Shown here piece after piece: positions 43,831-62,778 of a DNA stretch of 64,000 nucleotides (position 1 is the stretch's first letter; every line of letters begins with the position of its first letter). The stretch lies in contig CACWIW010000006.1 in the NCBI GenBank assembly GCA_902761035.1, positions 14,462 to 78,461 on the forward strand, written 5' to 3'. The translations under genes were made by a program, and so were the position numbers. This DNA comes from an uncultured bacterium. Its GTDB lineage: Bacteria > Verrucomicrobiota > Kiritimatiellia > RFP12 > UBA1067. A model generated the notes under the pieces. It did not search any database. It saw nothing but the letters and a program-made list of their open reading frames with translations, and was not told the DNA's origin.

Positions 43831-43832
43831 TC

Positions 43833-45008: not shown

Positions 45009-46211
45009 TCATGCGTCCGCCAAAGTTTTCATATAGAGCGCCTTGTTCACTTGCGGCGGCTCTTTCGGGCGTCCAAGGTCCTTGCGGGCGCCCTTCGCGA
45101 CTTTGAAAAGGATGAAGTTGGGTTTCTTGGGCAATTCATCACTATACTCGGACTTGTGCTGATTGAACTGCTCTTCCATCGAAATGAGCCAACGCATTCC
45201 AGAAGCGACATCATCAACGCCGATTCCTTGAGGATTGACGTACTGGTCTTGCGGAGACTGGAGGACATTGTAGCCCAGTTCTTCCGCAATCTTCTCGAAG
45301 TCGATCTCACCACCAACCGTTGGCTGACCACCAACCGAGTCGTGTGCGGCGTTGTTGAAGACGATGTGCGTGAGGTTGCCACATCCCGACTGTCCGACAA
45401 TCGCCATGTTGCCGAGGTGCATGATGCTGGCGCCGTCGCCGTCCAGGCAATAGACTTTACGATTCGGTTGCGCCTTGGCGATCCCAAGGGCGATCATTGA
45501 CGCATGGCCCATTGAGCCGACGGTCAGGAAGTCGCGCGAATGGTCCTGCCCGAGGCGTTCGCGCGTCTCATACACTTCACGCGAAATCATGCCGGTTGTC
45601 GAAACGACCACGGCGTCTTTCGGCAATGCCTTCAGAACGCCTTCGATCGCCTGTTCGCGCGGAAGCGTAGCGATGTTGGGTTTCTTGTTCTGCAATTTGT
45701 ATTCGGCAAAGAGTCCCTTTCGGACAACAAGCGCGACTGGACGCGATTCCGCCTTGGCGCGTTCGACCATCTTCCGCGTCAGTTCAAGCGCGGCGGCCTC
45801 GTCATCCGGCAAAATCTCCGTCGGGATGCCCAACGTCTCGAAGAGAGAGATGGTCACTTTACCTTGTTTCACGTGCTGTGGCTCGTCCTTCACGCCCGGC
45901 TCGCCCCGCCACCCAACGAGCAGAACCATCGGAATAGAGTAGACATCTGGATCGGCGAGTGATGCAAGCGGATTCACGGCATTGCCCTGTCCCGAGTTCT
46001 GCATGTACACGAGTGCTGGCATTCCCGTCGCAAGAAAATGCCCAGCCGCCAATCCAACCGCTCCACCTTCGTTCGCGGCAATCACGTGGTTCTTCCCGAA
46101 CGTATCGGTCACATACGCACAGAAGCTCTTCAACAGCGAATCCGGTACGCCTGCGAAGAACTCCACGCCCGCCGCCTTCAACCTATCAACAAACCTTTCA
46201 ACTTCAACCAT
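45009..46211 (-). CDS. ppd: Phosphonopyruvate decarboxylase, copy B (has about 30 extra residues near the C-terminus)
   Basis: MVEVERFVDRLKAAGVEFFAGVPDSLLKSFCAYVTDTFGKNHVIAANEGG.... Its 5' end and promoter are the sequence that is reiterated across the defence island. Confidence 0.8.
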   Translation of the reverse strand: MVEVERFVDRLKAAGVEFFAGVPDSLLKSFCAYVTDTFGKNHVIAANEGGAVGLAAGHFLATGMPALVYMQNSGQGNAVNPLASLADPDVYSIPMVLLVGWRGEPGVKDEPQHVKQGKVTISLFETLGIPTEILPDDEAAALELTRKMVERAKAESRPVALVVRKGLFAEYKLQNKKPNIATLPREQAIEGVLKALPKDAVVVSTTGMISREVYETRERLGQDHSRDFLTVGSMGHASMIALGIAKAQPNRKVYCLDGDGASIMHLGNMAIVGQSGCGNLTHIVFNNAAHDSVGGQPTVGGEIDFEKIAEELGYNVLQSPQDQYVNPQGIGVDDVASGMRWLISMEEQFNQHKSEYSDELPKKPNFILFKVAKGARKDLGRPKEPPQVNKALYMKTLADA

Positions 46212-46247
46212 CTCTCACCTTACCTCAACAATCATCTCACGTACACG

Positions 46248-46271
46248 GTACGTCACATATCGCAATATGTG
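46248..46271. promoter_or_regulatory. Operator-like imperfect palindrome GGTACGTCACATAT-N4-ATATGTG in the ppd-B promoter
   Basis: CACATAT/ATATGTG 7-bp inverted arms. It is reiterated at 46467, 52622, 54865, 61365 and 61610. Confidence 0.45.
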
Positions 46272-46466
46272 AAGCAACGCGGCAACGCTCCGCGCCCGTG
46301 GGGTATGCAGCCGAATACCTCATTCCTTCGCATTCTGATGTTTTAGCCACCATCGCGTTGCCGCATAGTGTAACCTATTTGTTGCGGGGTGTCAATGGGG
46401 AGACTTTGGATCTTCAGTTCCCAAACTCACCTTCACCACCACACACTTCACTCTGTCTGTCCACGC

Positions 46467-47611: not shown

Positions 47612-47760
47612 GATGCTTCTCCTTCCATTAAAGCGTGGACTTGTATTCACATCCGCCGCCTTCAACCCATCAACAAACCTTCCAACTTCAACCATCTCTC
47701 ACCATCCAACCCGCCCACAAACCTTACAACCATCTCTTATCATCCCTTTTTGTCAAAACA
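47612..47760. repeat. ppd 5' fragment + promoter unit 1 (junction unit), with 23-bp perfect palindrome caaaacaggtcagacctgttttg
   Basis: acatccgccgccttcaacccatcaacaaaccttccaacttcaaccat (= MVEVGRFVDGLKAADV) followed by ctctcaccat...; the palindrome is at about 47750-47772. Confidence 0.7.
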
Positions 47761-48528: not shown

Positions 48529-48700
48529 GGGTCTGACCCCATTGGTGAAGTAGAAGTGGTGGAGTAGTTTTTTTCACAACACAGGTGTCGGTCACATACG
48601 CGCAGAAGCCCTTCAGCAGCGAATCCGGCACGCCAGCGAAGAACTCCACGCCAGAATCATTCAAACAATCAACAAATCTCTTAACTTCTACCATACCATC
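48529..48700. repeat. Junction unit 2: GGGTCTGACCCC palindrome + conserved linker + ppd 5' fragment (MVEVKRFVDCLNDSGVEFFAGVPDSLLKGFCAYVTDTCVVKK)
   Basis: gggtctgaccccattggtgaagtagaagtggtggagtagttttttt cacaacacaggtgtcggtcacatacgcgcagaagcccttcagcagcgaatccggcacgcc.... Confidence 0.75.
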
Positions 48701-48814: not shown

Positions 48815-51385
48815 TCAATCTGTAATTCTCGTCAAAACTGAGACTTGTTCAATCTCATTCAATATTTCTGTGTGAGGCTGTACTTTGGCTGCTATCTCTG
48901 CATAAATATCCGCATTTAATGCTTCAGAAACCTCGTATGTGACAAATAAAGCATATTTCACCGGCTCCACAATCGCTGCAGCATTCTGGCGGCAATTAAC
49001 CTTAACCGTTACATTTTCTGTATCAACAACTGCAATAGCACGTTCATTTACAAAAACTTCATGTTGCACTGTCCCTCGCTTTACCTTTCGATAATCCACT
49101 TCTGTTCGCACACCAATACTACTATCATCAAGGATATTAAACCACAGTTTTGCATTTCGATACTTTCTATTAGTTGTCGTTACAGGTGTCAACCACGCCA
49201 ATGTTACAGTAAACTTCTTATAGCCACGAAATGAATTGACAGAAGGTGGGAGCGGAAAAACGTATGTATGCGCTTTATTATTTTTTAATTGCCCATATCC
49301 AATAAGAGTTACTCGATGATCGCTACATTCAAGTACTCGACTAATGCAACTCAGCCCATAGCCAATGTACTTAGCTATTTTCTTTCGTCCTACTTCGTCC
49401 TTATCATTTAAGCCCAACTTGTCCCCTAGATTACTTCTAATGTCATCCCAACCGGAAGAATGAACAACCATCGCTTTAAGAAGGCATGCTATATATTTAT
49501 CAAACTCTTCCCTTCCAATTCTATTAAGCAGGACATCATACAGCGCTACATATCCTCGACAACAATTGTGTGTTATCAAAGCTGCAGAACAACTGGTTCC
49601 GCGAAAATAACATGTCCTATTCAATTCACCGGGGGCACCTGGACAAGCAACCTTTATCCCTGGAGCACCGCTCGTATTACAAATATTGTATTCGACAAAA
49701 TCAGGCCCACAAGAGCCACTGCCATATAATTGCCGACCGCCATCCATAACTACATCTGGTTTAACGGATCGATTATACCCATCCCCAACAGAAGTTATAG
49801 GACTTGGCATTACTTGTTCAAATGGATTATGTCTATATCCTAGCACAAACTCGGAACAACTATCATTATGAATTGAACCAACAGTAATCGCATTTACAGA
49901 CTCCGCAGGCGAAAGTAACCTTCTATTACGCAAATTTGAATTAATGAATCTGAAGAATAACACCTCTTGCGTTCTCCGATCTTTTGATTCAAATTCCCTT
50001 GCCCCAAGATTAAGCGTTATTTTATCAGCATGATTACCAGAGCTTACAATTATCAGCACATTATACTTATAACTAAGCCAGTCAATCAATCTTGCGAGCG
50101 GGCTCATATCACTAAAAAACTCGCGAGACTCATCCCCGAGTGAGAGATTAATCAGTTTTACTGTCGGTGCTGCTGGAGTTAACTGTCCCTCGCCCTCAAA
50201 AATTCGCCTAATAGCCCTGTGTAATAAATCTACAACAAATACATTTTCAGGTATTTGTTCCCGCCCGTTTTCATATTTGAATATTGGTCTGAGATATATC
50301 TTGCTATTAACTGGCGGCTCGTGTGTATTGAGATCACCATGCAACACAAGTGATGCCATCGCTGTTCCATGAATCTGGTTCTCGAATTGATAATCTTCCG
50401 CGAATTCATCTGGGTCATCTATAATTACCCTGTCCTTCAATAAAGTATGTTCAACTATAGGCAGACCGTCCAACACACCAACTATCGGTTCGGTACACAC
50501 GGCTTCAGTATCACCTGTTACCGTAGTATATGGCTCAACAAACTCCACTTCATCTCTTGTAATCACTTTATTTACGAATTGGCCACAGGGACGAACATAC
50601 ATTATCTCCTCTGCTTTTATAAACTCCGCGTCCCCAGATTCTATAATCTGGGAGACCACGCTCAATGGCATAGCTACCTTAAGAGCGTGATATTTAATTT
50701 CTTCAACACAACATGATGCTATCACCATTCCCTGAGATTCAACAACTAAGGACCTGATTCGTGATTCGGCCTCACTTCTTCTCATATTATCATTCCTATA
50801 CCACAATTCTATATCAAACCTTAGGAAGGTCTCCCCCATGTCGATTGCATGCCTCCAATCCTCCTCAATCCCCGTGTCATGCATTCTATCCTTAACACCC
50901 CAGCGTCGAACATCTTTCAACAAAATAAACAATTGCTTGAACTTTCCAAATCCATGTTCAAAGGTATAATCCGGATTCTCTTTATAATGTTTCCACAAAT
51001 TATATAACTGATCAAGTGCCGTCCTATTACTCATCATCAAATACAAACGCCCATCCGATTGCGTATCTAGTTCTTCATCGTCTTCGTTTATTCTATTTTC
51101 AACAAGCCATTCTAGCCCTTGAATTCTGGCCACACAATTATAAAATGCATCTATCTCACCTAACACCTCCAGAACCAATACCAATTCAGGTTCGACACCC
51201 ATTGCCGATTCTGCCAGATTAGCTCTTTCGGAAACAAAGTTCTCTCTAATGGCAGTTAATTTCGGAGAACAGCTATTCCAAACATCACTTACCGTCTGGC
51301 GGACTGGATGTCCATGACTCGACGGCAACGATTCGCGATCCGCCTCGCTTGGTCTTGGAAATATTAAGAGTGGCCTCTGTGGCAT
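48815..51385 (-). CDS. Subtilisin-like S8 serine peptidase (IetS-like)
   Basis: 856 aa with an S8 catalytic triad context: VGVLDGLP (Asp), HGTAMASLV (His), GTSCSAALITH (Ser). It is paired with the upstream AAA ATPase. Confidence 0.6.
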   Translation of the reverse strand: MPQRPLLIFPRPSEADRESLPSSHGHPVRQTVSDVWNSCSPKLTAIRENFVSERANLAESAMGVEPELVLVLEVLGEIDAFYNCVARIQGLEWLVENRINEDDEELDTQSDGRLYLMMSNRTALDQLYNLWKHYKENPDYTFEHGFGKFKQLFILLKDVRRWGVKDRMHDTGIEEDWRHAIDMGETFLRFDIELWYRNDNMRRSEAESRIRSLVVESQGMVIASCCVEEIKYHALKVAMPLSVVSQIIESGDAEFIKAEEIMYVRPCGQFVNKVITRDEVEFVEPYTTVTGDTEAVCTEPIVGVLDGLPIVEHTLLKDRVIIDDPDEFAEDYQFENQIHGTAMASLVLHGDLNTHEPPVNSKIYLRPIFKYENGREQIPENVFVVDLLHRAIRRIFEGEGQLTPAAPTVKLINLSLGDESREFFSDMSPLARLIDWLSYKYNVLIIVSSGNHADKITLNLGAREFESKDRRTQEVLFFRFINSNLRNRRLLSPAESVNAITVGSIHNDSCSEFVLGYRHNPFEQVMPSPITSVGDGYNRSVKPDVVMDGGRQLYGSGSCGPDFVEYNICNTSGAPGIKVACPGAPGELNRTCYFRGTSCSAALITHNCCRGYVALYDVLLNRIGREEFDKYIACLLKAMVVHSSGWDDIRSNLGDKLGLNDKDEVGRKKIAKYIGYGLSCISRVLECSDHRVTLIGYGQLKNNKAHTYVFPLPPSVNSFRGYKKFTVTLAWLTPVTTTNRKYRNAKLWFNILDDSSIGVRTEVDYRKVKRGTVQHEVFVNERAIAVVDTENVTVKVNCRQNAAAIVEPVKYALFVTYEVSEALNADIYAEIAAKVQPHTEILNEIEQVSVLTRITD

Positions 51386-51391
51386 AACATT

Positions 51392-52378
51392 TTACTCTTT
51401 GTTTGACAATTCCTTGATTACATTCCTAATTGCCTTTTGTATATCTCCATTTGGCAGACTCAAGACGTATTTACGCATAACCGACAAACATACTTCCTCG
51501 AGTTCCGCATACGATAAGTATGCTCTTTTAGCCAATATCTCCTGTAATCTTGTTCCAAACACAATAGCAGACTTCCTTTCAAAACGCCTTATAAATTCAC
51601 CTATACCCCAAGTATCCGGTCCCGGTATTTCTACATGGAGCTGAAATCTCCGCCAAACGGCCCTATCAAGAAGTTCTGGATGATTAGAAGCACCAATAAT
51701 TACAACATGACTCGGCAAATCGTCAATCTTTAACAATAGCGTACTAACAACGCGTTTAACTTCACCTACATCATGTATATCTCCCCGTTCTTTCGCAATT
51801 GCATCAAATTCATCTAGGAAAAGCACACATCTTCGTGTTTTTACAAAATCAAATAAAGCGCTAATACGTGATGCTGTTTCCCCCAAATATGATGCCACTA
51901 GAGTTTCATATTTAACTGTATAAAGCGGAATCATCAGCGCTTCGGCCAAGCCTTCTGCAATAGAAGTTTTACCATTACCCGGGGCCCCAGTTAATAAAAC
52001 TCTATTTCTCGGTGCAAGCGCGTAAGATGCAAGCAAATCAGACCTCAAGTACTCATCCTTTAAATTATCGAGTTTCGTCCTAACACTATCTAAAATAACC
52101 AATTCATCCAGTCTCCTCTTAGGAATCTTTTCGTATACATATTCAGCGCCATTTTGTTTTGGAGCTAAGACAAGATTCCGCGAATAAGAATCTTCGACTT
52201 TATCAATGCCAAATCTACTTCTTTGAAGAGCTTCTTCAATAGCAAGCGCTACTACATCATGCTTCTTCGCCCTCTCTTCTGAAGCGACTGTTTCAGCAAT
52301 TCGTCGAGTTGCGATCCGATCGCCTCGCAATCCAGACTGAATCAATTTAATTATCAAATCAGATCTTGCCATTTCCAC
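51392..52378 (-). CDS. AAA+ ATPase (IetA-like)
   Basis: Walker A GAPGNGKT, Walker B VLFLDEFD, sensor-1 region IGASNHPELLD. Confidence 0.65.
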   Translation of the reverse strand: MEMARSDLIIKLIQSGLRGDRIATRRIAETVASEERAKKHDVVALAIEEALQRSRFGIDKVEDSYSRNLVLAPKQNGAEYVYEKIPKRRLDELVILDSVRTKLDNLKDEYLRSDLLASYALAPRNRVLLTGAPGNGKTSIAEGLAEALMIPLYTVKYETLVASYLGETASRISALFDFVKTRRCVLFLDEFDAIAKERGDIHDVGEVKRVVSTLLLKIDDLPSHVVIIGASNHPELLDRAVWRRFQLHVEIPGPDTWGIGEFIRRFERKSAIVFGTRLQEILAKRAYLSYAELEEVCLSVMRKYVLSLPNGDIQKAIRNVIKELSNKE

Positions 52379-52440: not shown

Positions 52441-52660
52441 GGGTCAGACCCTTTTGATAAAGTTCATTGATACAGTTGGTGGGACAACCGCCCTTATCCG
52501 TACAATGGCATCCGATTGAAAACTTCACCTGCACGCCTGTAAAGAACTCCACGCCCGCCGCCTTCAACCCATCAACAAACTTTCCAACTTCAACCATCTC
52601 TCACCATCATTTCAAATGCGCGGTACGTCACATATCACAATATGTGCAGCGCTCCACGCC
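52441..52660. repeat. Junction unit 3 (GGGTCAGACCC + short ppd 5' fragment + operator palindrome)
   Basis: gggtcagacccttttgat ... aaagaactccacgcccgccgccttcaacccatcaacaaactttccaacttcaaccatctctcaccatcatttcaaatgcgcggtacgtcacatatcacaatatgtg. Confidence 0.65.
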
Positions 52661-52914: not shown

Positions 52915-53090
52915 TTTTATGATGTCTCAAAGGGCCCCATTGGTGGAGTAGAAGTGGTGGAGTAGCTTTTTTCACAACACAGGTGTCGGTCACACACGTG
53001 CAGAAACCCTTCAGCAGCGAATCCGGCACGCCGGCGAAGAACTCCACGCCCACCGCCTTCAACCCATCAACAAACTTTCCAACTTCAACC
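52915..53090. repeat. Junction unit 4 (degenerate palindrome + linker + ppd 5' fragment with its start codon lost)
   Basis: agggccccattggtggagtagaagtggtggagtagcttttttcacaacacaggtgtcggtcacacacgtgcag ... ttcaaccccgtgcg; the track ORF 52838..53104 is this relic. Confidence 0.7.
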
Positions 53091-53105
53091 CCGTGCGAAA
53101 ACAAT

Positions 53106-54596
53106 TCAGCCCTCTTTTCGTAGTGTCACCTTCCAAAAACCACGCGTACCGCCTTCACGGACAAGTACACCCTTTGTCTTCAATGCGGCTATCTGTTTCT
53201 CGACAGTTCTTGGCCTAACATCTAAGGTTGATGCTATCTTACGGATTGCGGTCCTTGGATTCTCGATCAATATCTCACAAATGCGACGCTGTTCATTGGG
53301 AAGACCCACAAAGGAATTGTCCCCCCTATTGCCCCCCCCATTGTCCCCCCTATTGGTTGCGGGGGCCGGGCGCCAGATGACAATGCGAAAGCGACCAGAA
53401 ACCTCCTCCAAAAGAGGTTCCCTAAGCCCCTTTGCCTTGCATTCTTTCAGTAAATCGGTAAGTCCTGTCCCAATTGTCTCGATGTACTTCACCTGATACA
53501 TGGCGCGGGCGATTCGCGGATTCGTGGCAAACGACTCGTGCTTCTTGTACAATTCGGCAACGGTTATCGCGCGGTGGATCCGTCCTGGGCTGATGACCTC
53601 CACGCGATCCGAATAGACCTCAACCTGAATGCTGCCAATGCTCGCATAGTTTCGGTGGGCGATTGCGTTGTTGACGGCCTCGGCGATCACCGTGTTCGGA
53701 ATCTCGTCCACATCGTCCGCTGCCGCGCCGTGGCTATGTACTCCGGCACCATGATTCAGGTGTCGGCTGATGAATGCTATCGCCTGGTCAGCCATCAGAA
53801 ACAGATCTCCCTCGACAAGCTCCATGTCAATGTTGGGCTTGCGCTTTTCTGTTCCTGGATAACACGCGCACTTTATAGCAGAACTGGGAAACGGTCCCTG
53901 TACGTCACGCCCGAACAGTAGCACACCTGCCTTCGTCGGCGCGTTCCGCTTAGCGTCAAACAAGTGCAATGACCGCAGGACGTCAACAACCGACGGGTTT
54001 GGTGGATATTTGGCCTGACGTATACGGACGGCTCTCTCGACAAACCAAGCGATTCGGGCCGCATCAATGTCCTCCAGCGAAGCATCGGCCAGACACTGAT
54101 CTTCGAACGGCTTCTCCGATAAAATGCCGTCGTCAAGCATGATGTCGCGAAGGCTGTTCCGCACCTCGTCCAGCAGATCGTCGACAGCCTGTTCCGGTTC
54201 CGCATCCTGATATCTGACGCGCACACGTTCTTTTGAAACCTTGTCCAAGAAGCGCGCTTCACGATCTTCTCGCTTCGAGTTGTCCGAACCTCTCACCATT
54301 ACCAGTTTCGTGAGCCCCAGTTCCCTGGCTTTGTCAAATTCTTGTTCCGTTGGAGACAATTCCCCTTCACGGCAATATCCATATCGATTTCCAATCAGGA
54401 CAAGATAGATGTCACATTTCTCGATTTCTCCCAGATAGACTTGTTGCGTGGATTTGTCCGAAGCCGGTGCATCTATCTCAAAGACAAACACAGTGAAATA
54501 TGGCTTCAGTATCGGATCGGACTCAATCATCCGCTTGATTGCAGCCCGTTCGTGCTCGAATTCCTTCTGCACACTCGATATGAATAGCCGTTTCAT
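53106..54596 (-). CDS. DUF4062 domain fused to a Schlafen/AlbA_2-like domain, HATPase_c_4 and a C-terminal winged-HTH (RecG-C-like putative regulator)
   Basis: N-terminal MKRLFISSVQKEFEHERAAI is DUF4062-like. FDAKRNAPTKAGVLLFGRD matches the AlbA_2/Schlafen core. EAVNNAIAHRNYASIGSIQVEVYSDRVEVISPG matches HATPase_c_4. The C-terminal EQRRICEILIENPRTAIRKIASTLDVRPRTVEKQIAALKTKGVL is an HTH. Confidence 0.55.
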   Translation of the reverse strand: MKRLFISSVQKEFEHERAAIKRMIESDPILKPYFTVFVFEIDAPASDKSTQQVYLGEIEKCDIYLVLIGNRYGYCREGELSPTEQEFDKARELGLTKLVMVRGSDNSKREDREARFLDKVSKERVRVRYQDAEPEQAVDDLLDEVRNSLRDIMLDDGILSEKPFEDQCLADASLEDIDAARIAWFVERAVRIRQAKYPPNPSVVDVLRSLHLFDAKRNAPTKAGVLLFGRDVQGPFPSSAIKCACYPGTEKRKPNIDMELVEGDLFLMADQAIAFISRHLNHGAGVHSHGAAADDVDEIPNTVIAEAVNNAIAHRNYASIGSIQVEVYSDRVEVISPGRIHRAITVAELYKKHESFATNPRIARAMYQVKYIETIGTGLTDLLKECKAKGLREPLLEEVSGRFRIVIWRPAPATNRGDNGGGNRGDNSFVGLPNEQRRICEILIENPRTAIRKIASTLDVRPRTVEKQIAALKTKGVLVREGGTRGFWKVTLRKEG

Positions 54597-54662
54597 GGCG
54601 ACACTACATATCCGTTCACAAAATTACCCAGACTTGGATGTTCAGTTCCCAACGGGGCTAGA

Positions 54663-54950
54663 GGGTCTGGCCCCATTGGTGGAGTAGAAGTGGGGGAGTA
54701 GCTTTTTTCACAACACAGGTGTCGGTCACACACATGCAGAAACTCTTCAGCAGCGAATCCGGCACGCCGGCGAAGAACTCCACGCCCGCCGCCTTCAACC
54801 CATCAACAAACCTTCCAACTTCAACCATCTCTCACCTTACCTCAACAATCATTTCACATGCACTGTACGTCACATATCGCAATATGTGAAGCAACGCGGC
54901 AACGCTCCGCGCCCGTGGGGTATGCAGCCGAATACCTCATTCCATTTCCG
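54663..54950. repeat. Junction unit 5 (full-length copy of ppd-B promoter + 5' fragment + junction palindrome)
   Basis: 54700-54945 is near-identical to 46112-46330, including the operator and the cgctccgcgcccgtggggtatgcagccgaatacctcattcc motif. Confidence 0.8.
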
Positions 54951-55335
54951 CATGTGCATTTCTCCGCTCATGTTTGAGCCGTATAGTATACCATTTCCCC
55001 GCTGACTTATCCACCGTTTGACCATGCTGTTGATGATTTTCTTCTGTTGTTCCGCCACATGTGCCTAACGGCCTTTATCAACTCAAAACCACATCTCGAA
55101 ACAAGAATCGCTCTAAACCCTTACGACAATACTAGTTGTTCCAGAGTTGGCAATCATCCCATGATCCGCCGCGATTTCTCGTCCTTGTCCCACATATTCT
55201 TGAACAGATTCTTGTCCTTCAGCATATCCCAGCACTAATCCATCAATACCGGCTTATACCCAGCCGCTCAATCGTTTTATAATGCCCCCGCCGCATTTTA
55301 TACCATATTCCCGTATTTTCACCTCGTCTGAAAAT

Positions 55336-55971
55336 TCATGCCGCCTCTCGGTATGTTACAGTAGCGCAATCACGACTTGAAGAAGTCACCCTGTAGATTC
55401 GCCTTACCTCTGGCAAGACCTCTGTCTTAAAACTTGCAGAGAACGCCGTCTCCAAATTGATGTGTACGGGACCACCGCCATGCCATTTCAATGCCAACAA
55501 TGCCCGATTAACTTTAAGTTCGCAATCGCGCTCCTCTTCATAAGTCCTCGGTAGCGGACACTGTACAGAAAGATTCACGATGTCAGACGGCAAATGGATA
55601 CGGTCTGTCATCTGAGGCCACATGTTCCCGATATGGGAACTGTGCTGTGAACTTGTTATAGCCAGAACCGGCAACTTGCGATAATATGCCTCGGTAAGGG
55701 CTGGCATGTAATTCCTACTGGCCGTGGCTCCTGTACAATTGATAACAACTGGCTCTCCAGATTCCTCTGCGATGCCAACAGCGAGATATCCTGCGTGCCG
55801 TTCATCGACAGCAGAATACAACTTGAAGAACGGATCGCCCTGCACACTTAAGACGAAGCAATCATTCGTCGCCCCAGGGCTTAAGATCAAATGCTTAATC
55901 CCATACGCCTTCAGCAGCGCAATCACAATCTGCGCATTCTTCTCGTCAGTGTAGTAATGCTTTCCACTCAT
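55336..55971 (-). pseudogene. TPP-enzyme N-terminal domain only (truncated MenD/ALS/ppd-like gene, or ComD-like alpha subunit)
   Basis: 211 aa: KNAQIVIALLKAYGIKHLILSPGATNDCFVL ... GPVHINL is a TPP_enzyme_N domain, and no middle or C-terminal domains follow. Its first 23 codons are duplicated at 59472-59541. Confidence 0.45.
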
Positions 55972-56322
55972 TTTCTCGCTCCGCTTTTGTTATCCGCTAG
56001 TTTTCGTACCCAAATGTTTATCATGTTGTCCGCACTTACACGACAACAGTATTCAATTTCATCCTACGATTCGGGGACAAGTCTTTAGGCTAATAGGTTG
56101 CAGACCTATTTACTCTCCTTGGCATAACATAATATAGTCCGGGGACCCTACTTCCATGATACGATTTTCATAAATGGCCACATCCTTATCACAAGATTTA
56201 TCGTTGTAAACAAAAAGACGAATTGGTCTGCCAACAACTCTACTGACTTCATCAGAGACCCCACCGTACGATGTTTTATGGATACACTCGTCCTCAATAC
56301 GAAACTACCACTCCCATATTAA

Positions 56323-56793
56323 TTACTGTTTGCTTATATATTTACATAATTTTGTCAAATCAACAAGGGCATATTCATAGGCTTCTTTTATTGCACCAAG
56401 TAACTCTGCTTTCGATTCACATTCTACCGTTTTTCCCATATACTTCAAGTTTACAGGATAACCAGTAACAGGATTTAACTCATAACCAAAAATCCTTACA
56501 CCCCTATCAAGGACATAAACAACTACTTCATCCTTCATTTGTCTTGGTACCGTTGGGTTTTTCACCATCCCTGGCAATCCAATCATCATTGAATTCTCTT
56601 GGAAATGTGATATCGTAGAGGATAGTATTTGTAAACTTGAATTGAATTGTATTGTTATATCATATTTTTCCTTGAATGCTTCTACCATTGAATCTTTAAA
56701 ATCAGAAATTGTAGATATTATTTCTCTCCTATTTGCGAGACCTATTGGTATCTTATCTAATCCTACTTTAACAAAATTGAAATCCTCTTTCAC
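56323..56793 (-). CDS. Hypothetical protein, partner of the EEP nuclease
   Basis: 156 aa with no recognisable motif. There is a 1-nt gap to the upstream EEP gene. Confidence 0.4.
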   Translation of the reverse strand: MKEDFNFVKVGLDKIPIGLANRREIISTISDFKDSMVEAFKEKYDITIQFNSSLQILSSTISHFQENSMMIGLPGMVKNPTVPRQMKDEVVVYVLDRGVRIFGYELNPVTGYPVNLKYMGKTVECESKAELLGAIKEAYEYALVDLTKLCKYISKQ

Positions 56794-56794
56794 A

Positions 56795-57589
56795 TTATGC
56801 TCCTTTCTGCCATGAAATGGTTATTCCAACAGGGCTGTGTTCACTTTTTTCTGGATTATATGTCGTTGTTCCATAAATTCTTTCAGTACAATCAAACCTA
56901 TCCAATGAAAGAAAGGAAGACGATATTAGTAAAAAATCAAACAGTGCTCTTGTACTCTTTATGTCATCCACATTTTTGCAATTCAAACTTCCCACTTCAT
57001 CATGCATCTGACGCCAAAATGGATTGAAGAATCCTCCATGTTTTTTGACAAAATCACTTGATCGACTGACATTTAATGACCGCAATGCAGGCGACCATGG
57101 CTCAACGTTAAAATCCCCCATTACTATAGCAACTGCATCCTTTAATCGCCGCTGATCATCTCCAAATGCCAATCTATTCAACTTTCCTGCTGCGGCACGT
57201 TTTCTATCATCGCTATATGGAGCATCTTTTTGATTCCAATGGACAAGAAAGACATCCAACGAGGCATATAGCGCACTAACATTAAGCCGAACTCGTTGAC
57301 AAACGCGATATTGCCCACTAACTTCTGCCGAATCTGTCTTAACAATATTCCTATCCTCTTCACCAAAACTACAATCTACCTTTATTCGAGCTGAATTATA
57401 AATAAGCATTGTCTTAAAATTTATGCGACCAGATTGATGTATAAGTGGCATGATCTTCATTTTCTTTGGGCACAATGAGCCTATTCTCTTAACTAAGTCC
57501 AAATCACCTATTTCGCCCAACCCAATGATATCATTCTCTTTAGACAACAGATTGATTGTCCGCAATACCGATGCTGTGTTACAACACAC
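56795..57589 (-). CDS. Endonuclease/exonuclease/phosphatase (EEP) family protein
   Basis: VAIVMGDFNVEPWSPAL (EEP catalytic DFN motif) and an H-containing C-terminal motif. Confidence 0.55.
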   Translation of the reverse strand: MCCNTASVLRTINLLSKENDIIGLGEIGDLDLVKRIGSLCPKKMKIMPLIHQSGRINFKTMLIYNSARIKVDCSFGEEDRNIVKTDSAEVSGQYRVCQRVRLNVSALYASLDVFLVHWNQKDAPYSDDRKRAAAGKLNRLAFGDDQRRLKDAVAIVMGDFNVEPWSPALRSLNVSRSSDFVKKHGGFFNPFWRQMHDEVGSLNCKNVDDIKSTRALFDFLLISSSFLSLDRFDCTERIYGTTTYNPEKSEHSPVGITISWQKGA

Positions 57590-57722
57590 ATCACCACCAT
57601 AGGGACTAAGGCTCGTATTCCACCAAGCGATAGAAAGCGATCCTCCCTTTCTAGGTTTACCTATACACGACTCGTTAATAACAGAAAACCCTTTAAGATT
57701 TTATGCCAAGGCCTCCATGAGG

Positions 57723-58142
57723 TTAGACCCCATTGACGCAAACACTGGCGTTAATTCGATCTAGGGGGATTGTTAGGACGTGCCTCACAGCCCATTCACC
57801 AATTGGATAGCCAATTGCCAGCAAGACAATTGGGAACACAGTCTCGATTGTCAGCGCAGTGTTGAACCACCGTCTACTTTCCTCAAGGGCGGCCTCCTTA
57901 TCATTGGCGGCCATAGCCTGTCCAATTGATATCGCGTAAAACCTAGTAGCCCCTCCAACAACGACGCTGTTGAAAAAGCCGATGAAACCTATCAGACATC
58001 CAACAGCTCCCAATAACCCATAGTCCACTTCGCCTAGCGCCATCAGTATCCACCGTCCGCAAAACAACCCGATTATAAGCGCATACAGGCTCCGCCCATA
58101 TGTGGCTATAATGTTCAGAAATATTCTACGATTCGGAGACAT
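57723..58142 (-). pseudogene. Wzx flippase N-terminal fragment (remnant)
   Basis: The 139 aa (ATYGRSLYALIIGLFCGRWILMALGEVDYGLLGAVGCLIGFIGFFNSVVVGGATRFYAISIGQ) match the first 3-4 TM helices of Polysacc_synt/Wzx. The reading frame ends at the junction palindrome at 57720. Confidence 0.55.
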
Positions 58143-58208
58143 GGCTGTTATTTCTCAAAGATCAATGGCGTTTGACCAATCGTTGTAATTAACCCAATCA
58201 CTTCATTA

Positions 58209-59336
58209 TTATCCATTAGAATCGGCTTTAGGCGGTTGATTTCGCACAGTTGACACCGCATTCGCTAATTTTGCTACACAGTCAGCTACTTCGGACAATG
58301 GGGTTTGTGTTTTAACCTTATCAAGTGTCGAATTCGGATTCGAGCAAAGCACCCTAATCGTTTTTGACATCAAATCCTCGCTCAATTCTTTAGCACTTGA
58401 CACACCCTTATTCGCAAGCTCTTCTACCTGTTTTGCCATTCCAGTATATGTCTGCGCAACAACTACCTTATGGGCATATTCTTCCATTAATCGCCTATCT
58501 TGATTCATCAACTTATTTAGATGACACGTTAACCAAAATAGTGGCAGCACAAGCGGAGCTTTGCTCAACATGGCTTTTACAATCTTACCCCATAGGTCAT
58601 CACCAACTATTGATCCAACAGAAGAAACTGCGCACGAACCAATTATGCAAAACCCAATCAAACAGGCATAAAAGGAAATTCGTTCAAATATATACCTATT
58701 ACCTATCGACTTACGTTTCTCCTCAAATTGTGAACTCAATGTAGCAACTGTAGCCGTTGCCAACATGTCCTTCAACTTGCCCTGAAGCTCCTCGCAAGTG
58801 CTCTTGTTTTCTTCGATGAATTTCTTCAATGAATTAACAGCATTAGTCTGGCACTTTAAGGAGAATGTTTCAATTGATCTTTCTGCATCTTCTATTTTCT
58901 TGTCTACTTTGTCATGCAGATCATCAGAGGCTTTACGCAACTCATCCAAATCGGCATCTTCTCGCTGCCGTTCTTGCATCCAAGATTCTTTAGTTGATTG
59001 TAGTTTCGTCTCAAACTCACTAATGCTGCGCTCACAACGACCAAGCCTTTCAGCTAGTTCTTTGCTTTTGGTAAGGTCACTTACCAGATTACTCAAAGCA
59101 TCTGATGAATGCGCCGCCAAGTTATTATTTCCAGATGGGGTAAGAGATCTGGATGCGTTCCCTACTGCAGCTGAGGCAGCTCGCATTGCTACTAAGAACT
59201 GCTTCTGCAACTCTGGCGATACACCATTAAATGTCTTCAGCAGCGATTCCTCCGGCTCAATACCCAAGGCATCTCTGAGCCGCTGTTTTGCATCTGCATT
59301 TATCGCATTCTGGACTACTGGATTTGAACTCTTCAA
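58209..59336 (-). CDS. Coiled-coil membrane protein (2 TM), unknown function
   Basis: 375 aa with an N-terminal coiled coil of about 190 aa, two hydrophobic helices (ISFYACLIGFCIIGSCAVSSVGSIV; APLVLPLFWLTCHL) and a C-terminal soluble region. Confidence 0.45.
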   Translation of the reverse strand: MKSSNPVVQNAINADAKQRLRDALGIEPEESLLKTFNGVSPELQKQFLVAMRAASAAVGNASRSLTPSGNNNLAAHSSDALSNLVSDLTKSKELAERLGRCERSISEFETKLQSTKESWMQERQREDADLDELRKASDDLHDKVDKKIEDAERSIETFSLKCQTNAVNSLKKFIEENKSTCEELQGKLKDMLATATVATLSSQFEEKRKSIGNRYIFERISFYACLIGFCIIGSCAVSSVGSIVGDDLWGKIVKAMLSKAPLVLPLFWLTCHLNKLMNQDRRLMEEYAHKVVVAQTYTGMAKQVEELANKGVSSAKELSEDLMSKTIRVLCSNPNSTLDKVKTQTPLSEVADCVAKLANAVSTVRNQPPKADSNG

Positions 59337-59471
59337 TTTGTTTGATCCTCACTGTCGCGTTCCATAAACTTCACCCGTCTCTTTATGTTCTTTAAGTATT
59401 ATTCGCATACATGTCCTCCCGTTTTATTTGCCGCAAATTATACCATTTATCTTCTCTCTACAAGCCGCACC

Positions 59472-59541
59472 ATGCGTCTTCAGCAACGCAATCACAATCT
59501 GCGCATTCGTCTCGTCTGTGTAGCAATGTTTTCCACTCATA
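59472..59541 (-). repeat. Duplicated 5' fragment (23 codons) of the TPP-N gene at 55336..55971
   Basis: atgagtggaaaacattgctacacagacgagacgaatgcgcagattgtgattgcgttgctgaag is about 90% identical to 55902-55971. Confidence 0.75.
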
Positions 59542-59673
59542 CAACCACTCTCCTCATGTCAAGGCTTCGCGCCATAACACAATGTTTCCAACCCTTTCCT
59601 TTAAGTAACGCAACTGATAAATCTATGTCATGTACAATCATGCACAATCCTACGACACCGTCATATCAGAACG

Positions 59674-60162
59674 TCAACTTGACGATTCGGAAGATTCTGA
59701 ATTCCGTATCTCCGCATATTCATGTGCCTTTTCCAATAAATCTATACTCTCAAGAGAATGCGCAGATGAAGATAATATCGGATATGTTGAAAGCACAAAA
59801 GTTGCAAGCCCAGAATGCTGTCTTTCTTTATAGATGGAAACCACTTTATTTATAACATTCCTGATCTGTTCGGGAATGTCTTCTGGAGGGCGAATCAAAC
59901 ACCGCACCTCTTGATTTACATCATCCACCTCAAATTCTTGTTTTGAAGATCTAAGATATGATTCCAACCCTTCGTCCGCCAAACCATGTCGAAATACTTT
60001 CCATTGAACATCGACCACACGACAATTGTATTTAATGCAGGAATGCCAATCACATAGATAAACCAATAACAACAAGGTTATTTGGTCGACCCGATTACTT
60101 CCTGTCGCCGCACTTATAAGTACGGAAACAAATTGACCAAGTTGTATTTTTTCGCTGTCCAT
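59674..60162 (-). CDS. Hypothetical protein (first of a two-gene cassette)
   Basis: 162 aa with no recognisable motif. It is separated from the upstream gene by 1 nt. Confidence 0.4.
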   Translation of the reverse strand: MDSEKIQLGQFVSVLISAATGSNRVDQITLLLLVYLCDWHSCIKYNCRVVDVQWKVFRHGLADEGLESYLRSSKQEFEVDDVNQEVRCLIRPPEDIPEQIRNVINKVVSIYKERQHSGLATFVLSTYPILSSSAHSLESIDLLEKAHEYAEIRNSESSESSS

Positions 60163-60163
60163 G

Positions 60164-61024
60164 TTAAAACTCCTCCAATTCTTTTACCTTGTCCGGCGAC
60201 GGGATATAGTCTTTAAATGCATGGATAACAGCTCCGAGTTTCTGGCAACTAGGCTTTACGATCTTTTCTATTTCCGCATCATCTCTGCCACCAATCCCTT
60301 TTATCAATGAAGCGATAACAATAATGGCAAGATGTTCCCCCTTACAATCAATCCGAGTTCCCCAATATGTCCGTCCATGAAATTTAATACTCTGTATATC
60401 ATCCGCTGATAAATTATAAACTTTTTTACAATATGATTCATACTCTCGCTTCCCCTTCTTTCCATTGGAGATTTTAGGGAATTTATCATCATATAACTTT
60501 CCTTCATCCCAAATCTTCTTGAACATTTTTGCTAATGGTCTCATTCGACAACTTTTCTTTTCATATTCGAGATTAGTTGAACATCTTTCACAACAGAAAT
60601 ATTGTTGCGCATCCCCATTGCCCTGTACAAGGTAGAGAGATATTCTGTCACTGTTGCCCAAATCTAGTTCACTACGAAGGCTCTCCAATATGCCATGAAG
60701 CGCGGATGGAACAACTTTCTCCATCGTGGATATTTTACCTTGGAATTCTTCTACTTTATCCCTTAATCCATCGTTCTCATCTGATAACTTTGTCACACTT
60801 TTCTTCGTGATATGAGAAATTAGAACACGAACTACTACTAGTATAATAATCATTCCAAAGGCGCTCCATGCAACGGCTCGCCCATAAGACATATTAACAC
60901 TATCTGGGAGAAGCGCACCACGAACCTCTGAAGACAGAAACAACGGAGAAACCACGACCAAACCTTCATATACAATACGAAGAGGTATTGCATATTTCTC
61001 TATCCACATTATAAAAGTTTTCAT
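60164..61024 (-). CDS. Membrane-anchored (2 TM) protein with a Cys-rich globular domain, unknown function
   Basis: The start is taken at MKTFIMWIEKY because the longer track ORF runs into the junction palindrome. It has two N-terminal TM helices, a coiled coil and a CCERC...C region. Confidence 0.45.
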   Translation of the reverse strand: MKTFIMWIEKYAIPLRIVYEGLVVVSPLFLSSEVRGALLPDSVNMSYGRAVAWSAFGMIIILVVVRVLISHITKKSVTKLSDENDGLRDKVEEFQGKISTMEKVVPSALHGILESLRSELDLGNSDRISLYLVQGNGDAQQYFCCERCSTNLEYEKKSCRMRPLAKMFKKIWDEGKLYDDKFPKISNGKKGKREYESYCKKVYNLSADDIQSIKFHGRTYWGTRIDCKGEHLAIIVIASLIKGIGGRDDAEIEKIVKPSCQKLGAVIHAFKDYIPSPDKVKELEEF

Positions 61025-61047
61025 ACTAAACCTTTGGCGGACGGATA

Positions 61048-61068
61048 CTATGGGGTCAGACCCCATAG
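61048..61068. repeat. Perfect 21-bp palindrome CTATGGGGTC-A-GACCCCATAG (junction site)
   Basis: Seen directly in the sequence. The same GGGGTCAGACCCC core occurs at 48529, 52441, 54663, 57720 and 61422. Confidence 0.85.
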
Positions 61069-61286
61069 TAAGAATCAGCGAAGTATGTTCAACCATCTTA
61101 ACGCGAATACCTTCTTGCCGCCCACTTCACAACTTCCAGCGGCACTGTCTTCCGTTCGCGCGGAAACGCAGACTTCTCGCTTTTCGACACCTTGGTGACG
61201 AAGTTTGCCGATCCAATTATACCACCCGACGTGAAGAGCGCATCTTCCCGATCTTCCTGTTCCGCCATGTCTGCGTCCATCCTGAT

Positions 61287-61400
61287 CCGCAACTGCCCGC
61301 CGCCTTCAACCCATCAATGAATCTTACAACACCAACCATTTCTCGACATCATTTCATCTGCGCGGCACGTCACTTATGCGAATATGTGCAAGGTTGGGAT
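61287..61400. repeat. Junction unit 6 (short ppd 5' fragment + operator)
   Basis: ccgccgccttcaacccatcaatgaatcttacaacaccaaccat ... cgcggcacgtcacttatgcgaatatgtg. Confidence 0.65.
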
Positions 61401-61421
61401 GGAGACGTGGAGGGGCTCAAA

Positions 61422-61650
61422 GGGTCTGACCCCATTGGTGGAGTAGAAGTGGTGGAGTAGCTTTTTCACAACACAGGTGTCGGTCACACACGTGCAGAAA
61501 CTCTTCAGCAACGAATCCGGCACACCGGCGAAGAACTCCACGCCCGCAGCCTTCAACCCATCAATGAATCTTCCAACTTCAACAATCTCTCACCATCATT
61601 TCACATGCGCGGTACGTCACTTATTTGAATATGTGCAGCCGCTCATGTTT
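61422..61650. repeat. Junction unit 7 (palindrome + linker + ppd 5' fragment + operator)
   Basis: gggtctgaccccattggtggagtagaagtggtggagtagctttttcacaacacaggtgtcggtcacacacgtgcagaaactcttcagcaacgaatccggcacacc ... ggtacgtcacttatttgaatatgtg; the track ORF 61374..61556 is this relic. Confidence 0.75.
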
Positions 61651-61669: not shown

Positions 61670-62110
61670 TTATGCCAACAAAGGATGCTTTTGGTCTTTC
61701 GGCGACAGAATCAATGGGACGCCAATATCCGGCCATTTGACTTCAAGAACCGGATCGTCGAATCGCATTCCACGGTCGGACGCGGGGCAATAGAGATTGT
61801 CACACTTGTAACTGAACAGCGTATTGTCCTCCAGGACGATGAAGCCATGCGCGAACCCGCGAGGAATGTAGAACTGCTTTCTGTTCTCGCCTGTCAGCGT
61901 GACTACTACGTGCTTTCCAAAGGTTGACGAGCCTTTCCGGATGTCGACAACCACATCCCAGACCGCGCCCTGAATCACCCTCACCAGTTTAGCCTGGGTG
62001 TGCGGCGCGGCTTGCCAATGGAGTCCTCTCACAACGTCCTTCGACGTAGGGCCGGGATTGAAAACGTCTTTGTGCAGGACAACAAAAGTTTCTCGTCTTA
62101 CGTCCCCACT
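61670..62110 (-). pseudogene. rmlC: dTDP-4-dehydrorhamnose 3,5-epimerase (rmlC), 5'-truncated
   Basis: VVRGLHWQ...AKLVRVIQGAVWDVVVDIRKGSSTFGKHV...FYIPRGFAHGF is the RmlC cupin. The frame is open upstream to a TAG stop at about 62127-62129, with no Met codon. It encodes SGDVRRETFVV, corresponding to RmlC residues about 20-30. The first 20 or so codons are absent, and the region overlaps the 3' end of the RloB-like gene. Confidence 0.6.
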
Positions 62111-62778
62111 TCCGCTACGGATAGTTGCCTACTGATGAAATCAAACAATGGGGCGACCTTTGGCGAATTCCAATCCCAAAGATTCGGATCTAACAAACCC
62201 TTCATAATTCCTCCGCGATCCCACACAGAAGGGCCGAGTACTGCCGCCTCATAATCGTTCATCTTTGATTTCTGCGATGGCTTCTGTCCTCCATGAATCT
62301 CAAGACAGGCTTCGTACCGTCGCCAGCACTCAGCAATGAGGGAAACGTATTTTTGCGGCACAATGTCTTCAAGCAGATTCTCAAGTTCTCCGTCCCGGTT
62401 GTTATCTGGGAAGAGGAAAATATCAATGGCGTTTTTGGGCGGCGCCAGAAGCCGCCAAGTCGAAATCGCTTCCTTCAAGAACTTCGTTCGGTCGGCAACA
62501 CCACCTTTTTCCACACCTGTTTCATCTGCGTCAAATATCAGCGCAACATACAACCCGTCGCCATTTTTGTCCTCAGCAGAAGACTTTGCGCGGTCAAGTT
62601 TTGTGTACCCACCGACAGGAATTACCTCCACGCTCATCACTTCCGACCGAAGCAACACCCCGTCTACTGAACTTTCCGGAACACCAAATTCCGTGAACCC
62701 GGGGAATCTCGCGGCAAATAATGCACGAATAAAGCATGCGTCTTTCTTCCCTTCAACGAGAAATCTGACGGTTTTCAT
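62098..62778 (-). CDS. RloB-like / DUF4435 (TOPRIM-like) protein, AbiLii-like
   Basis: 226 aa. There is a 4-nt overlap with the upstream AAA_21 ATPase gene. The acidic DADETG ... DNNRDGE motifs are consistent with a TOPRIM-like fold. Confidence 0.45.
   Translation of the reverse strand: MKTVRFLVEGKKDACFIRALFAARFPGFTEFGVPESSVDGVLLRSEVMSVEVIPVGGYTKLDRAKSSAEDKNGDGLYVALIFDADETGVEKGGVADRTKFLKEAISTWRLLAPPKNAIDIFLFPDNNRDGELENLLEDIVPQKYVSLIAECWRRYEACLEIHGGQKPSQKSKMNDYEAAVLGPSVWDRGGIMKGLLDPNLWDWNSPKVAPLFDFISRQLSVAEVGT

Follow-up and report, generated by a model that had tools for sequence, protein, structure and literature searches.

What does a lone gene with the domains of an immune effector do among genes for polysaccharide and phosphonate biosynthesis? 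The question is raised by the gene at positions 53106 to 54596 of a 64,000-nucleotide stretch of DNA, the window hereafter, from an uncultured bacterium of the Kiritimatiellia (GenBank assembly GCA_902761035.1, contig CACWIW010000006.1, positions 14,462 to 78,461). An earlier reading of the letters alone, here called the original prediction, had described a four-part fusion of an N-terminal DUF4062 domain, a Schlafen/AlbA_2 core, a HATPase_c_4 domain of the GHKL type and a winged helix-turn-helix (wHTH). Three of these four domain calls hold, namely DUF4062, HATPase_c_4 and wHTH, while the Schlafen core does not. Judged from its sequence, the protein is a GHKL-wHTH chassis of the Schlafen family in which DUF4062 has been substituted for the Schlafen domain, not a Schlafen protein onto which DUF4062 has been added. 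We consider it probable, at roughly 60%, that the gene encodes a single-protein abortive-infection system against phages, with a putative NADase as effector and the GHKL-wHTH part as control module. The gene and the parts of its product are listed below.

53106..54596, minus strand, gene of the DUF4062-GHKL-wHTH protein, a complete and uninterrupted open reading frame (ORF) started by ATG, 496 aa plus stop
54207..54596, minus strand, DUF4062/NIR TIR-like domain, predicted NADase effector (residues 1-130)
54345..54347, minus strand, codon of E84 (in SPTE), predicted catalytic glutamate, the codon read from the sequence
54123..54206, minus strand, long helix joining the effector to the GHKL module (residues 131-158; DSSP helix 134-155 in the model)
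53700..54122, minus strand, N-terminal subdomain of the GHKL module (residues 159-299), the stretch that had been taken for a Schlafen core
53367..53699, minus strand, Bergerat-type GHKL ATP-binding fold (residues 300-410, of which PF13749 spans 322-407)
53667..53681, minus strand, E306-x3-N310 (N-box), predicted Mg-ATP site, invariant in 64/64 relatives
53307..53366, minus strand, disordered linker (residues 411-430; predicted local distance difference test score, pLDDT, < 50 at 414-427)
53109..53306, minus strand, C-terminal wHTH, predicted specificity module (residues 431-496)

The target protein, with the N-terminus MKRLFISSVQKEFEHER, is encoded in full length and has every conserved residue intact. 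Five independent metagenome contigs encode an identical protein, and DNA copies of the gene with 96.5-97.4% identity were found in two genomes, one rumen metagenome-assembled genome (MAG) and one sheep-rectum Kiritimatiellae MAG. A Kiritimatiellae bacterium of the ruminant gut is therefore the most likely origin of the window. The AlphaFold2 model had a mean pLDDT of 86.6 and was confident throughout except in the linker. These results bear on the possibility that the gene is an inactive or decaying remnant. Its setting could suggest this, as the region is prone to recombination and holds three truncated glycan genes (listed further below), and a homolog on the Legionella plasmid pLPP is split. 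Given the intact frame, the identical and near-identical copies and the confidence of the predicted structure, a remnant is extremely improbable.

The N-terminal domain was assigned to DUF4062 (PF13271) by Pfam over residues 3-90, in agreement with the original prediction (E 1.4e-20, 73.7 bits against a cut-off of 24.7, full profile 1-82). The same family was matched in 64/64 relatives, the family members on which all conservation and domain statistics given here were computed. Residues 4-111 aligned by phmmer with residues 8-109 of the DUF4062 domain of KpSwz (PDB 10wc; E 2.6e-4). Alternating strands and helices across residues 2-129 of the model point to a TIR-like or flavodoxin-like alpha-beta fold. 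For this domain Foldseek returned TIR-STING (9lmq, E 2.4e-4), the TIR of RPS4/RRS1 (4c6t) and the TIR of SARM1 (9mw2, TMt 0.67), together with the nucleoside 2-deoxyribosyltransferases 2a0k and 6qai. E84, located in the motif SPTE, aligned by phmmer with the glutamate of the KpSwz motif SFTE, which we infer to be the published E97 (position 82 of the chain, to which the 15-residue offset of the 16-C construct is added). Eight residues of the domain, F5, S7, S8, Q10, E12, Y72, S81 and E84, were invariant in all 64 relatives, and these residues agree with the 'aromatic' and 'acidic-S-x-T' motifs of Evangelion.

In three preprints of 2026, DUF4062 has been characterised as a TIR-like NAD+ hydrolase that serves as effector of several anti-phage systems (10.64898/2026.05.01.722283, 10.64898/2026.06.25.731849, 10.64898/2026.09.04.749371). 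Swarozyc (KpSwz), Evangelion, NIR-Avs2, Vulcan and Vesta all carry this effector, and one glutamate is essential in each, the catalytic glutamates being E97 in KpSwz, E87 in Eva01 and E108 in PsAvs2. DUF4062 proteins abort infection by depletion of NAD+, for which the glutamate is required, and the trigger of KpSwz is the phage portal. NAD+ was depleted or hydrolysed by all DUF4062 proteins assayed, which were KpSwz, PsAvs2, Vulcan, Vesta, Eva01 and human TEP1. By its profile match, predicted fold, catalytic glutamate and genomic context, the target is assigned to the DUF4062/NIR domain family.

The fold and the literature also bear on a related explanation, in which the protein serves defence and NAD+ is not the substrate of its DUF4062 domain, which might be either a nucleotide or nucleoside N-glycosidase or a producer of a signalling nucleotide. 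The likeness to nucleoside 2-deoxyribosyltransferases fits this, the same domain in Avs proteins was originally annotated as a CMP hydrolase, and the proven NADases are only distantly similar to the target. However, every assayed DUF4062 protein acts on NAD+, the catalytic glutamate motif is common to them and the target, and no partner effector gene is conserved beside the family. Another substrate is thus unlikely, and an NADase remains the preferred assignment of the effector.

Behind the effector, a long helix leads into the GHKL module; the TIR-like domain of KpSwz is likewise followed by helical stalks. It was the next stretch, residues 159-299, that had been read as Schlafen. Pfam gave no match to SLFN_AlbA_2 (PF04326) in the target at E ≤ 1, and at E ≤ 10 this family did not rank among the 25 that the 64 relatives matched most often. 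Canonical proteins used as positive controls matched PF04326 at 3.5e-19 and 1.9e-22. The catalytic motif of Schlafen proteins, Ex4(E/D)xK as defined in PMC13056530, was absent from the target and occurred at any one position in at most 1/64 relatives. The canonical comparison proteins were found by tblastn in plasmids. The one from Mycoplasmopsis contains SLFN_AlbA_2 at 6-116, HATPase_c_4 at 285-355 and HTH_24 at 394-439, and the one from Klebsiella contains SLFN_AlbA_2 at 14-127 and HATPase_c_4 at 297-361. BLASTP aligned target residues 147-490 with residues 119-452 of the Mycoplasmopsis protein (E 5e-23), a match that starts directly after SLFN_AlbA_2. Residues 159-299 are accordingly homologous to about 119-280 of the canonical protein, downstream of AlbA_2. 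The crystal structure 3LMM (DIP2311) aligned with the target in Foldseek over about 353 columns (E 7e-16), including residues 159-299, and the sequence alignment was collinear (target 290-403 with 3LMM 287-400, phmmer E 1.3e-3).

Because homology to the canonical AlbA_2-GHKL-HTH proteins begins where AlbA_2 ends, DUF4062 replaces the Schlafen nuclease. With no PF04326 match, no catalytic motif and an alignment that starts behind AlbA_2, the Schlafen/AlbA_2 core has to be withdrawn. That Schlafen and DUF4062 domains are both recurrent in anti-phage contexts, as was also stated, is correct, but of the two the target has DUF4062 alone. A recent swap of Schlafen for DUF4062 in this lineage was considered and rejected, since identity to the Schlafen version found in another stretch (L099) is just 24-29%. 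More generally, the part shared by the canonical Schlafen-GHKL-HTH proteins and the target is only 24-30% identical, so the effector exchange was not recent. Nor does the target belong to the 'Schlatpase' supradomain (SLFN_AlbA_2 plus PF13749), of which it has the PF13749 half only.

The HATPase_c_4 domain (PF13749) was detected by Pfam at residues 322-407 (E 9.5e-20, 70.8 bits against a cut-off of 26), as the original prediction had it, and was matched in 64/64 relatives. Foldseek related this GHKL fold to the catalytic cores of histidine kinases, and weak HATPase_c matches were obtained in 7/64 relatives. Besides E306 and N310 of the predicted Mg-ATP site, the residues H314, R315, Y317, P337, G338, E373, G376 and G378 were invariant. 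The spacing of E306 and N310 equals that of E314 and N318 in the SLFN-pAgo protein RzAgo, a correspondence by motif and position. In RzAgo, PF13749 forms a GHKL ATPase of the Bergerat fold. This ATPase both binds ATP and hydrolyses it via E314/N318, which coordinate the gamma-phosphate and Mg2+, and its ATP-bound form drives the tetramerisation that assembles the active Schlafen nuclease (10.64898/2026.05.29.728809). PF13749 was present in 58.6% of 103,533 prokaryotic Schlafen proteins (the 'Schlatpase' pair), most of them short and with or without a C-terminal HTH (10.64898/2026.05.29.728809). A Nature Microbiology study found Schlafen-'HisKinase' (34.0%) and Schlafen-'HisKinase-HTH' (19.2%) to be the commonest Schlafen architectures. 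NCBIfam assigned no family to the target protein and gave just weak HTH and anti-sigma-kinase matches. The PADLOC model Aga_SIR2-PNTD1-PNTD2, an Argonaute-associated SIR2 protein, matched residues 161-388 (E 1.8e-13); this likeness, a profile match only, suggests that SIR2, another NAD+-degrading effector, is fused to a related module.

Support for the C-terminal wHTH comes from the structure model and from matches to HTH_24 in 34/64 relatives (best 1.7e-14), while in the target itself HTH_24 stayed below the threshold (E 8.9e-4, 19.2 bits against a cut-off of 21.9). DIP2311-like_C was matched in 18/64 relatives. The modelled domain comprises helices at 434-445, 451-458 and 462-474 and strands at 478-481 and 487-490, corresponding to three helices and a beta-hairpin wing. 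All-pairs identity among the 64 relatives was 54% in the DUF4062 core, 54% in the Bergerat fold and 46% in the N-terminal subdomain of the GHKL module, against 24% in the wHTH and 16% in the linker. Nine relatives were at least 76% identical overall, and their wHTH identity averaged 53% with a minimum of 19%. Since wHTH identity falls to 19% at such overall identity, the wHTH has been exchanged between close relatives. Many full-length matches of an exhaustive HMMER search aligned just to about residue 410, and relatives carry alternative C-terminal winged-helix types such as Fic-like_C and DIP2311-like_C. If the wHTH sets specificity, one would expect this combination of a conserved effector and switch and a hypervariable terminal module. 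The phage sensor of KpSwz is also an HTH/winged domain and binds a phage protein rather than DNA.

Tandem Repeats Finder located a 12-nt tandem repeat of 3.3 copies within the target gene (53316-53355). It encodes the disordered linker between GHKL and wHTH (NRGDNGGGNRGDN), at which relatives have other short peptide repeats. Linker length may therefore vary by slippage.

From these parts a mechanism can be proposed, in which the NADase activity, the ATP-driven oligomerisation, the trigger and the phenotype are modelled on other proteins. The NADase would be kept inactive in the uninfected cell. As the conservation pattern suggests, the wHTH, alone or with a surface of the GHKL domain, would recognise a phage-derived protein or nucleic acid. 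ATP bound at the E306/N310 site would bring the GHKL domains together as a dimer or tetramer, by analogy with RzAgo. This oligomerisation would gather the DUF4062 domains into an active assembly that cuts NAD+ into ADP-ribose and nicotinamide, as in KpSwz and in TIR biology. The same GHKL-wHTH module would control a Schlafen tRNA nuclease in thousands of other prokaryotic proteins.

The combination was stated in the original prediction not to be a named system, which holds as far as the text of the literature searched is concerned. The text of the Schlafen papers contained no mention of DUF4062, and the supplement text of the Swarozyc preprint contained none of HATPase, AlbA and PF13749, although its figures may still draw the architecture. 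The predicted output of the target is most like that of Swarozyc, Evangelion and Vulcan, and its predicted control is most like that of the Schlafen-GHKL-HTH proteins.

Swarozyc (KpSwz, Osinski et al. 2026, PDB 10wc) shares with the target a single gene, an N-terminal DUF4062, the glutamate in S-x-T-E, the helical stalk, a C-terminal HTH/winged sensor and abortive infection via NAD+ depletion, an activity that is predicted for the target. However, KpSwz has 326 aa and no GHKL ATPase, its alignment to the target is limited to residues 4-111, and its portal-binding AUX domain is not detectably homologous to the wHTH of the target. Membership in Swarozyc was rejected, as the C-terminal 340 residues of the target are instead homologous to Schlafen-family GHKL-HTH proteins. 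Evangelion (Eva01), Vulcan, Vesta and NIR-Avs2 also combine a DUF4062/NIR effector with a diversified C-terminal region needed for defence, and their N-terminal aromatic and catalytic glutamate regions match F5 and S81/E84 of the target family. Their partner regions differ, being a short unannotated AUX, HEAT repeats, a STAND NTPase with TPR repeats or a separate phosphatase gene, and none has been described as having PF13749.

The Schlafen-GHKL(-HTH) proteins ('Schlatpase', pSlfn-HisKinase-HTH, COG2865, 3LMM) are homologous to the target over about 340 residues comprising the GHKL module, linker and wHTH. They have the same length and order and also occur in restriction-modification (RM) operons and defence islands, but carry an N-terminal SLFN_AlbA_2 tRNA nuclease where the target has DUF4062. 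RzAgo (10.64898/2026.05.29.728809) shares PF13749 with the E-x3-N ATP/Mg site and provides the only experimental evidence on the role of PF13749. It differs in its size of about 1,100 aa, its guide-loaded Argonaute sensor and its Schlafen effector, and it has neither wHTH nor DUF4062.

A total of 412 homologs with the Pfam pair of the target were found, relatives are encoded in at least 582 genome loci, and 243 clusters (50% identity level) reached E ≤ 1e-30 in the exhaustive HMMER search. The family is distributed patchily over many bacterial phyla and some archaea. Carriage on viral contigs is rare; the full architecture was present in 1/14 viral-contig relatives, and GenBank phages have the GHKL-wHTH part only. 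Three relatives of 870-897 aa (P0141, P0158 and P0189) have 400-470 extra residues before the DUF4062-GHKL unit, and a giant relative of 2918 aa (P0128) contains the GHKL part only.

The neighbourhoods of homologs were compared qualitatively in about ten cases. Close relatives were located in glycan loci, where their various neighbours were a 1018-aa reverse transcriptase and SIR2_2 plus DUF87, ATPase_2/DUF234 and AAA_14/DUF4143, a YobI-ATPase, and a Zeta-toxin-like gene and AAA_15/21 plus DUF4435. Distant relatives (35-40% identity to the target) included one between a ResIII restriction subunit and an N6_N4 methylase, next to an OLD-TOPRIM/UvrD (Gabija-like) pair, and one within a helicase/SNF2/methylase (DISARM-like) cluster. 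The canonical Schlafen versions were located inside type I RM operons, as in the literature. Homologs were thus not found mainly in housekeeping operons in the ordinary sense, as relatives in glycan loci were always accompanied by other defence-type cassettes and distant homologs lay in RM, DISARM-like and Gabija-containing islands.

Among the settings of the distant relatives are also conjugative plasmids of Legionella, which carry the same architecture either fused in one gene or split over two adjacent genes. The fused homolog WP_106195501.1 (L129:7545-9116, 523 aa) is annotated only as 'ATP-binding protein'. The split homolog of the Legionella pneumophila Paris plasmid pLPP (L089 39-1539) consists of a DUF4062 protein of 173 aa and a GHKL/Fic-like_C protein of 323 aa, and the database names of the split genes are 'ATP-binding protein' and 'DUF4062 domain-containing protein'.

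All long ORFs of the window read from the minus strand. A locus for the biosynthesis of polysaccharides and phosphonates takes up most of the window, with genes for phosphoenolpyruvate (PEP) mutase, a phosphonopyruvate-decarboxylase-like thiamine pyrophosphate (TPP) enzyme, an aminotransferase, glycosyltransferases and Wzy. The target gene is co-oriented with this long locus, which is broken up by inserted genes between 46.2 and 64 kb. The surroundings of the target gene are as follows.

48815-51385, minus strand, IetS S8 protease (PADLOC E 4e-286)
51392-52378, minus strand, IetA AAA ATPase (PADLOC E 2e-123)
52933..53092 (repeat copy 52933-53145), minus strand, downstream junction unit without leader: 5' fragment of the decarboxylase gene and tail core 52935-52966, from about 10 nt past the stop codon of the target gene
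54658..54947, minus strand, upstream junction unit: leader, first ~43 codons of the decarboxylase-like gene and ~60-nt tail, core 54671-54702
55336-55971, TPP_N fragment, a truncated glycan gene
56795-57589, endonuclease/exonuclease/phosphatase-family (EEP) gene with a 156-aa partner
57723-58142, flippase-like start, a truncated glycan gene
61670-62032, C-terminal piece of rfbC, a truncated dTDP-sugar isomerase gene, after the AbiLi-like/DUF3226 pair
62098-63866, minus strand, AbiLi-like AAA_15/AAA_21 ATPase (E 6e-51) and downstream DUF3226 protein, upstream of the target gene
46052-46330, 47626-47748, 48535-48692, 52528-52650, 52933-53145, 54669-54947, 61270-61392 and 61427-61639, the eight copies of the junction unit, some partial, sense on the minus strand

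A complete two-gene Iet system (48815-52378) lies directly downstream of the target gene and forms its own junction-bounded cassette. Upstream are the AbiLi-like ATPase with its DUF3226 neighbour, the EEP-family gene and several unknown genes. The DUF3226 protein showed a weak match to PDC-M38B.

The target gene had been described as standing alone between two junction units, and it is indeed bracketed by the repeat units 52933-53145 and 54669-54947. Units of this kind separate the inserted genes inside the glycan operon. The phosphonopyruvate-decarboxylase-like gene has an intact copy that starts at 46211 and lacks the ~60-nt tail; the upstream unit and the start of this intact gene (46102-46326) share 93% identity over 225 nt. 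The tail reads ACCTGTGTTGTGAAAAAAG-CTACTCCACCA-CTT-CTACTCCACCA-ATGGGGTCAGACCC, and a search for its core gave 4 copies against 0 expected. A promoter-like site was found in the upstream unit (54890->54862), as a consensus match only. A sigma-70 promoter scan gave 7 promoter-like sites against 3.1 expected and a terminator scan 1 terminator-like site against 3.0 expected, both at the level of consensus matches.

The 31-nt tail core was also found in 19 further metagenome stretches, where it precedes diverse, mostly defence-like cargo: a canonical Schlafen-GHKL-HTH protein (L099), an AAA_21/15 ATPase, a Tle1-like hydrolase, a DUF2326 plus HNH pair and unknown genes. Five of these 19 stretches have the core abutting a 361-aa IS200-like Y1 (HUH) transposase. 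Its ORF in L098:1303-2388 (-) matched Y1_Tnp with 33 bits against a cut-off of 23 and has a winged-helix-like region at the C-terminus, and in L112 inverted cores at 2688-2712(-) and 3826-3850(+) flank the Y1 gene 2738-3823 (+). The association, seen in related metagenome contigs and not in the window, suggests a relationship like that between repetitive extragenic palindromic (REP) sequences and REP-associated tyrosine transposases (RAYT). The core had no significant hairpin (single-stranded DNA folding -5.2 kcal/mol, z-score 0.03 against shuffles) and is therefore not a textbook REP. No tRNA, tmRNA or Rfam family was detected at the junctions. An integron gene cassette was rejected. Each junction combines a duplicated gene start with a 31-nt core that has no significant self-structure, and the window ORFs that were scanned, which comprised all but some 30 of those located from 8.6 to 40 kb, contained no integrase. 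The junction tail was absent from the first five homolog loci, which have other direct repeats or heptamer arrays.

Related loci differ in cassette content. The target gene directly follows a homolog of window 62046-61608 in L009 and L010, and in L100 its downstream junction leads into a different cargo gene. As the content differs in L009, L010 and L100, the target gene and about 55 nt of its own upstream sequence assort as a unit. The junctions are breakpoints of gain and loss. A segment of about 7 kb (54653-61607) is missing from L009:138-2134 and L010:9479-10674, in otherwise near-identical genomes. This segment holds the TPP_N fragment, the EEP gene and its partner, the flippase-like start and ORFs of 375, 162 and 310 aa, and its breakpoints fall in junction and leader sequence.

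Other repeats were also observed in the window. Arrays of a 7-nt repeat occur at 3141-3314, 4138-4311, 5774-5950, 31410-31468 and 31823-31873. They bracket two non-glycan genes, 3361-4308 (Zn_ribbon_Top1) and 4305-5450 (RNA ligase plus OB fold), and in inverted orientation a 23S_rRNA_IVP (four-helix-bundle) gene (31409-31819). Similar arrays occur around the target homolog in L001 (9926-9986, 11638-11684 and 14024-14190). These arrays may be a second kind of cassette boundary. Two phosphonate blocks comprising PEP mutase, Fe-ADH, permease, aminotransferase and decarboxylase (24336-31400 and 40121-46211; families D4, D5 and D12) are paralogous, about 80% identical, about 15.8 kb apart and in the same orientation.

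A gene that moves as a discrete repeat-bounded cassette, and that is found on conjugative plasmids beside partition and toxin-antitoxin genes, could also be a toxin-like addiction module that stabilises its carrier cassette or plasmid, with loss of the element or stress triggering the NADase. The two-gene split in Legionella pLPP does resemble a toxin/regulator pair. Against this, the family lacks a conserved antitoxin-like partner, specific phage proteins were shown to elicit the response of single-gene DUF4062 systems with C-terminal sensors, and the hypervariable C-terminus better fits an arms race with phages. Addiction is thus quite unlikely as the role of the gene, and an anti-phage function is preferred.

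The view of a self-contained defence gene, proposed from the letters alone, gains support from the literature on DUF4062 NADases, the conserved glutamate, the Iet and AbiL-like neighbours, the homologs in defence islands and the retention of the gene while its neighbours change. Several points weigh against it. The similarity to KpSwz is weak (E 2.6e-4) and the proven NADases are only distantly related to the target. PADLOC has no system model for the protein, which gave partial matches to Argonaute-associated and CARF/Csa3 HTH models alone, and the architecture is undescribed in that the text of the DUF4062 papers contains none of GHKL, HATPase, histidine kinase, AlbA and Schlafen. Stand-alone Schlafen-HisKinase proteins gave no protection in E. 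coli against the phages used, so that a role as control module is unproven outside RzAgo; in RzAgo the sensor is the Argonaute core, neither the GHKL domain nor an HTH (10.64898/2026.05.29.728809). As close relatives are embedded in loci for glycan biosynthesis, a role linked to surface polysaccharides is conceivable, and JGI labels relatives 'predicted HTH transcriptional regulator'.

The last two points, together with the co-orientation of the target gene and the glycan locus, would fit a transcriptional regulator whose wHTH binds DNA and whose GHKL domain binds a small ligand, and which regulates the surrounding polysaccharide and phosphonate genes. An invariant active site of the NADase type would be out of place in such a regulator. 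Moreover, the wHTH is among the least conserved parts and is swapped between close relatives, the occurrence of the gene is independent of that of the neighbouring genes, and no glycan genes lie near the distant homologs, which were found on plasmids and in islands of the RM, DISARM-like or Gabija-containing type. Regulation of the glycan locus is therefore highly improbable, and abortive infection by a DUF4062 effector under GHKL-wHTH control is retained as the reading of this gene.

The two halves of the protein were characterised only in 2026, and separately: DUF4062 as an NADase, and PF13749 as the ATP switch of Schlafen-type immune proteins. The target is a natural chimera that joins both lines, and effector exchange on one chassis is a classic signature of sensor-effector immune proteins. 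The effector swap on a shared chassis therefore argues that the abundant Schlafen-GHKL-HTH proteins sense infection via their GHKL-wHTH part. One chassis would have two read-outs, NAD+ loss and tRNA cleavage, and the Legionella conjugative plasmids offer a cultivable source.

As a speculative extension, which we advance tentatively, GHKL-wHTH might be a portable infection-sensing switch for the Schlafen nuclease, the DUF4062 NADase and possibly SIR2, shuffled in a Kiritimatiellae-like rumen lineage as promoter-carrying cassettes into a surface-glycan operon. If this were true, tens of thousands of proteins named 'COG2865 / RecG-like / HTH regulator' would be sensor-effector immune proteins with one activation mechanism. 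The junctions, in which a duplicated gene start is combined with a repeat on which an IS200-like Y1 transposase would act, would then be an integron-like capture platform with a different chemistry, and this cassette platform is potentially more novel than the protein. Apart from this extension, the defence genes stand as independently assorting cassettes inside a phosphonate/polysaccharide operon, so that surface glycan and intracellular immunity, both of them phage-facing traits, vary together at a single locus.

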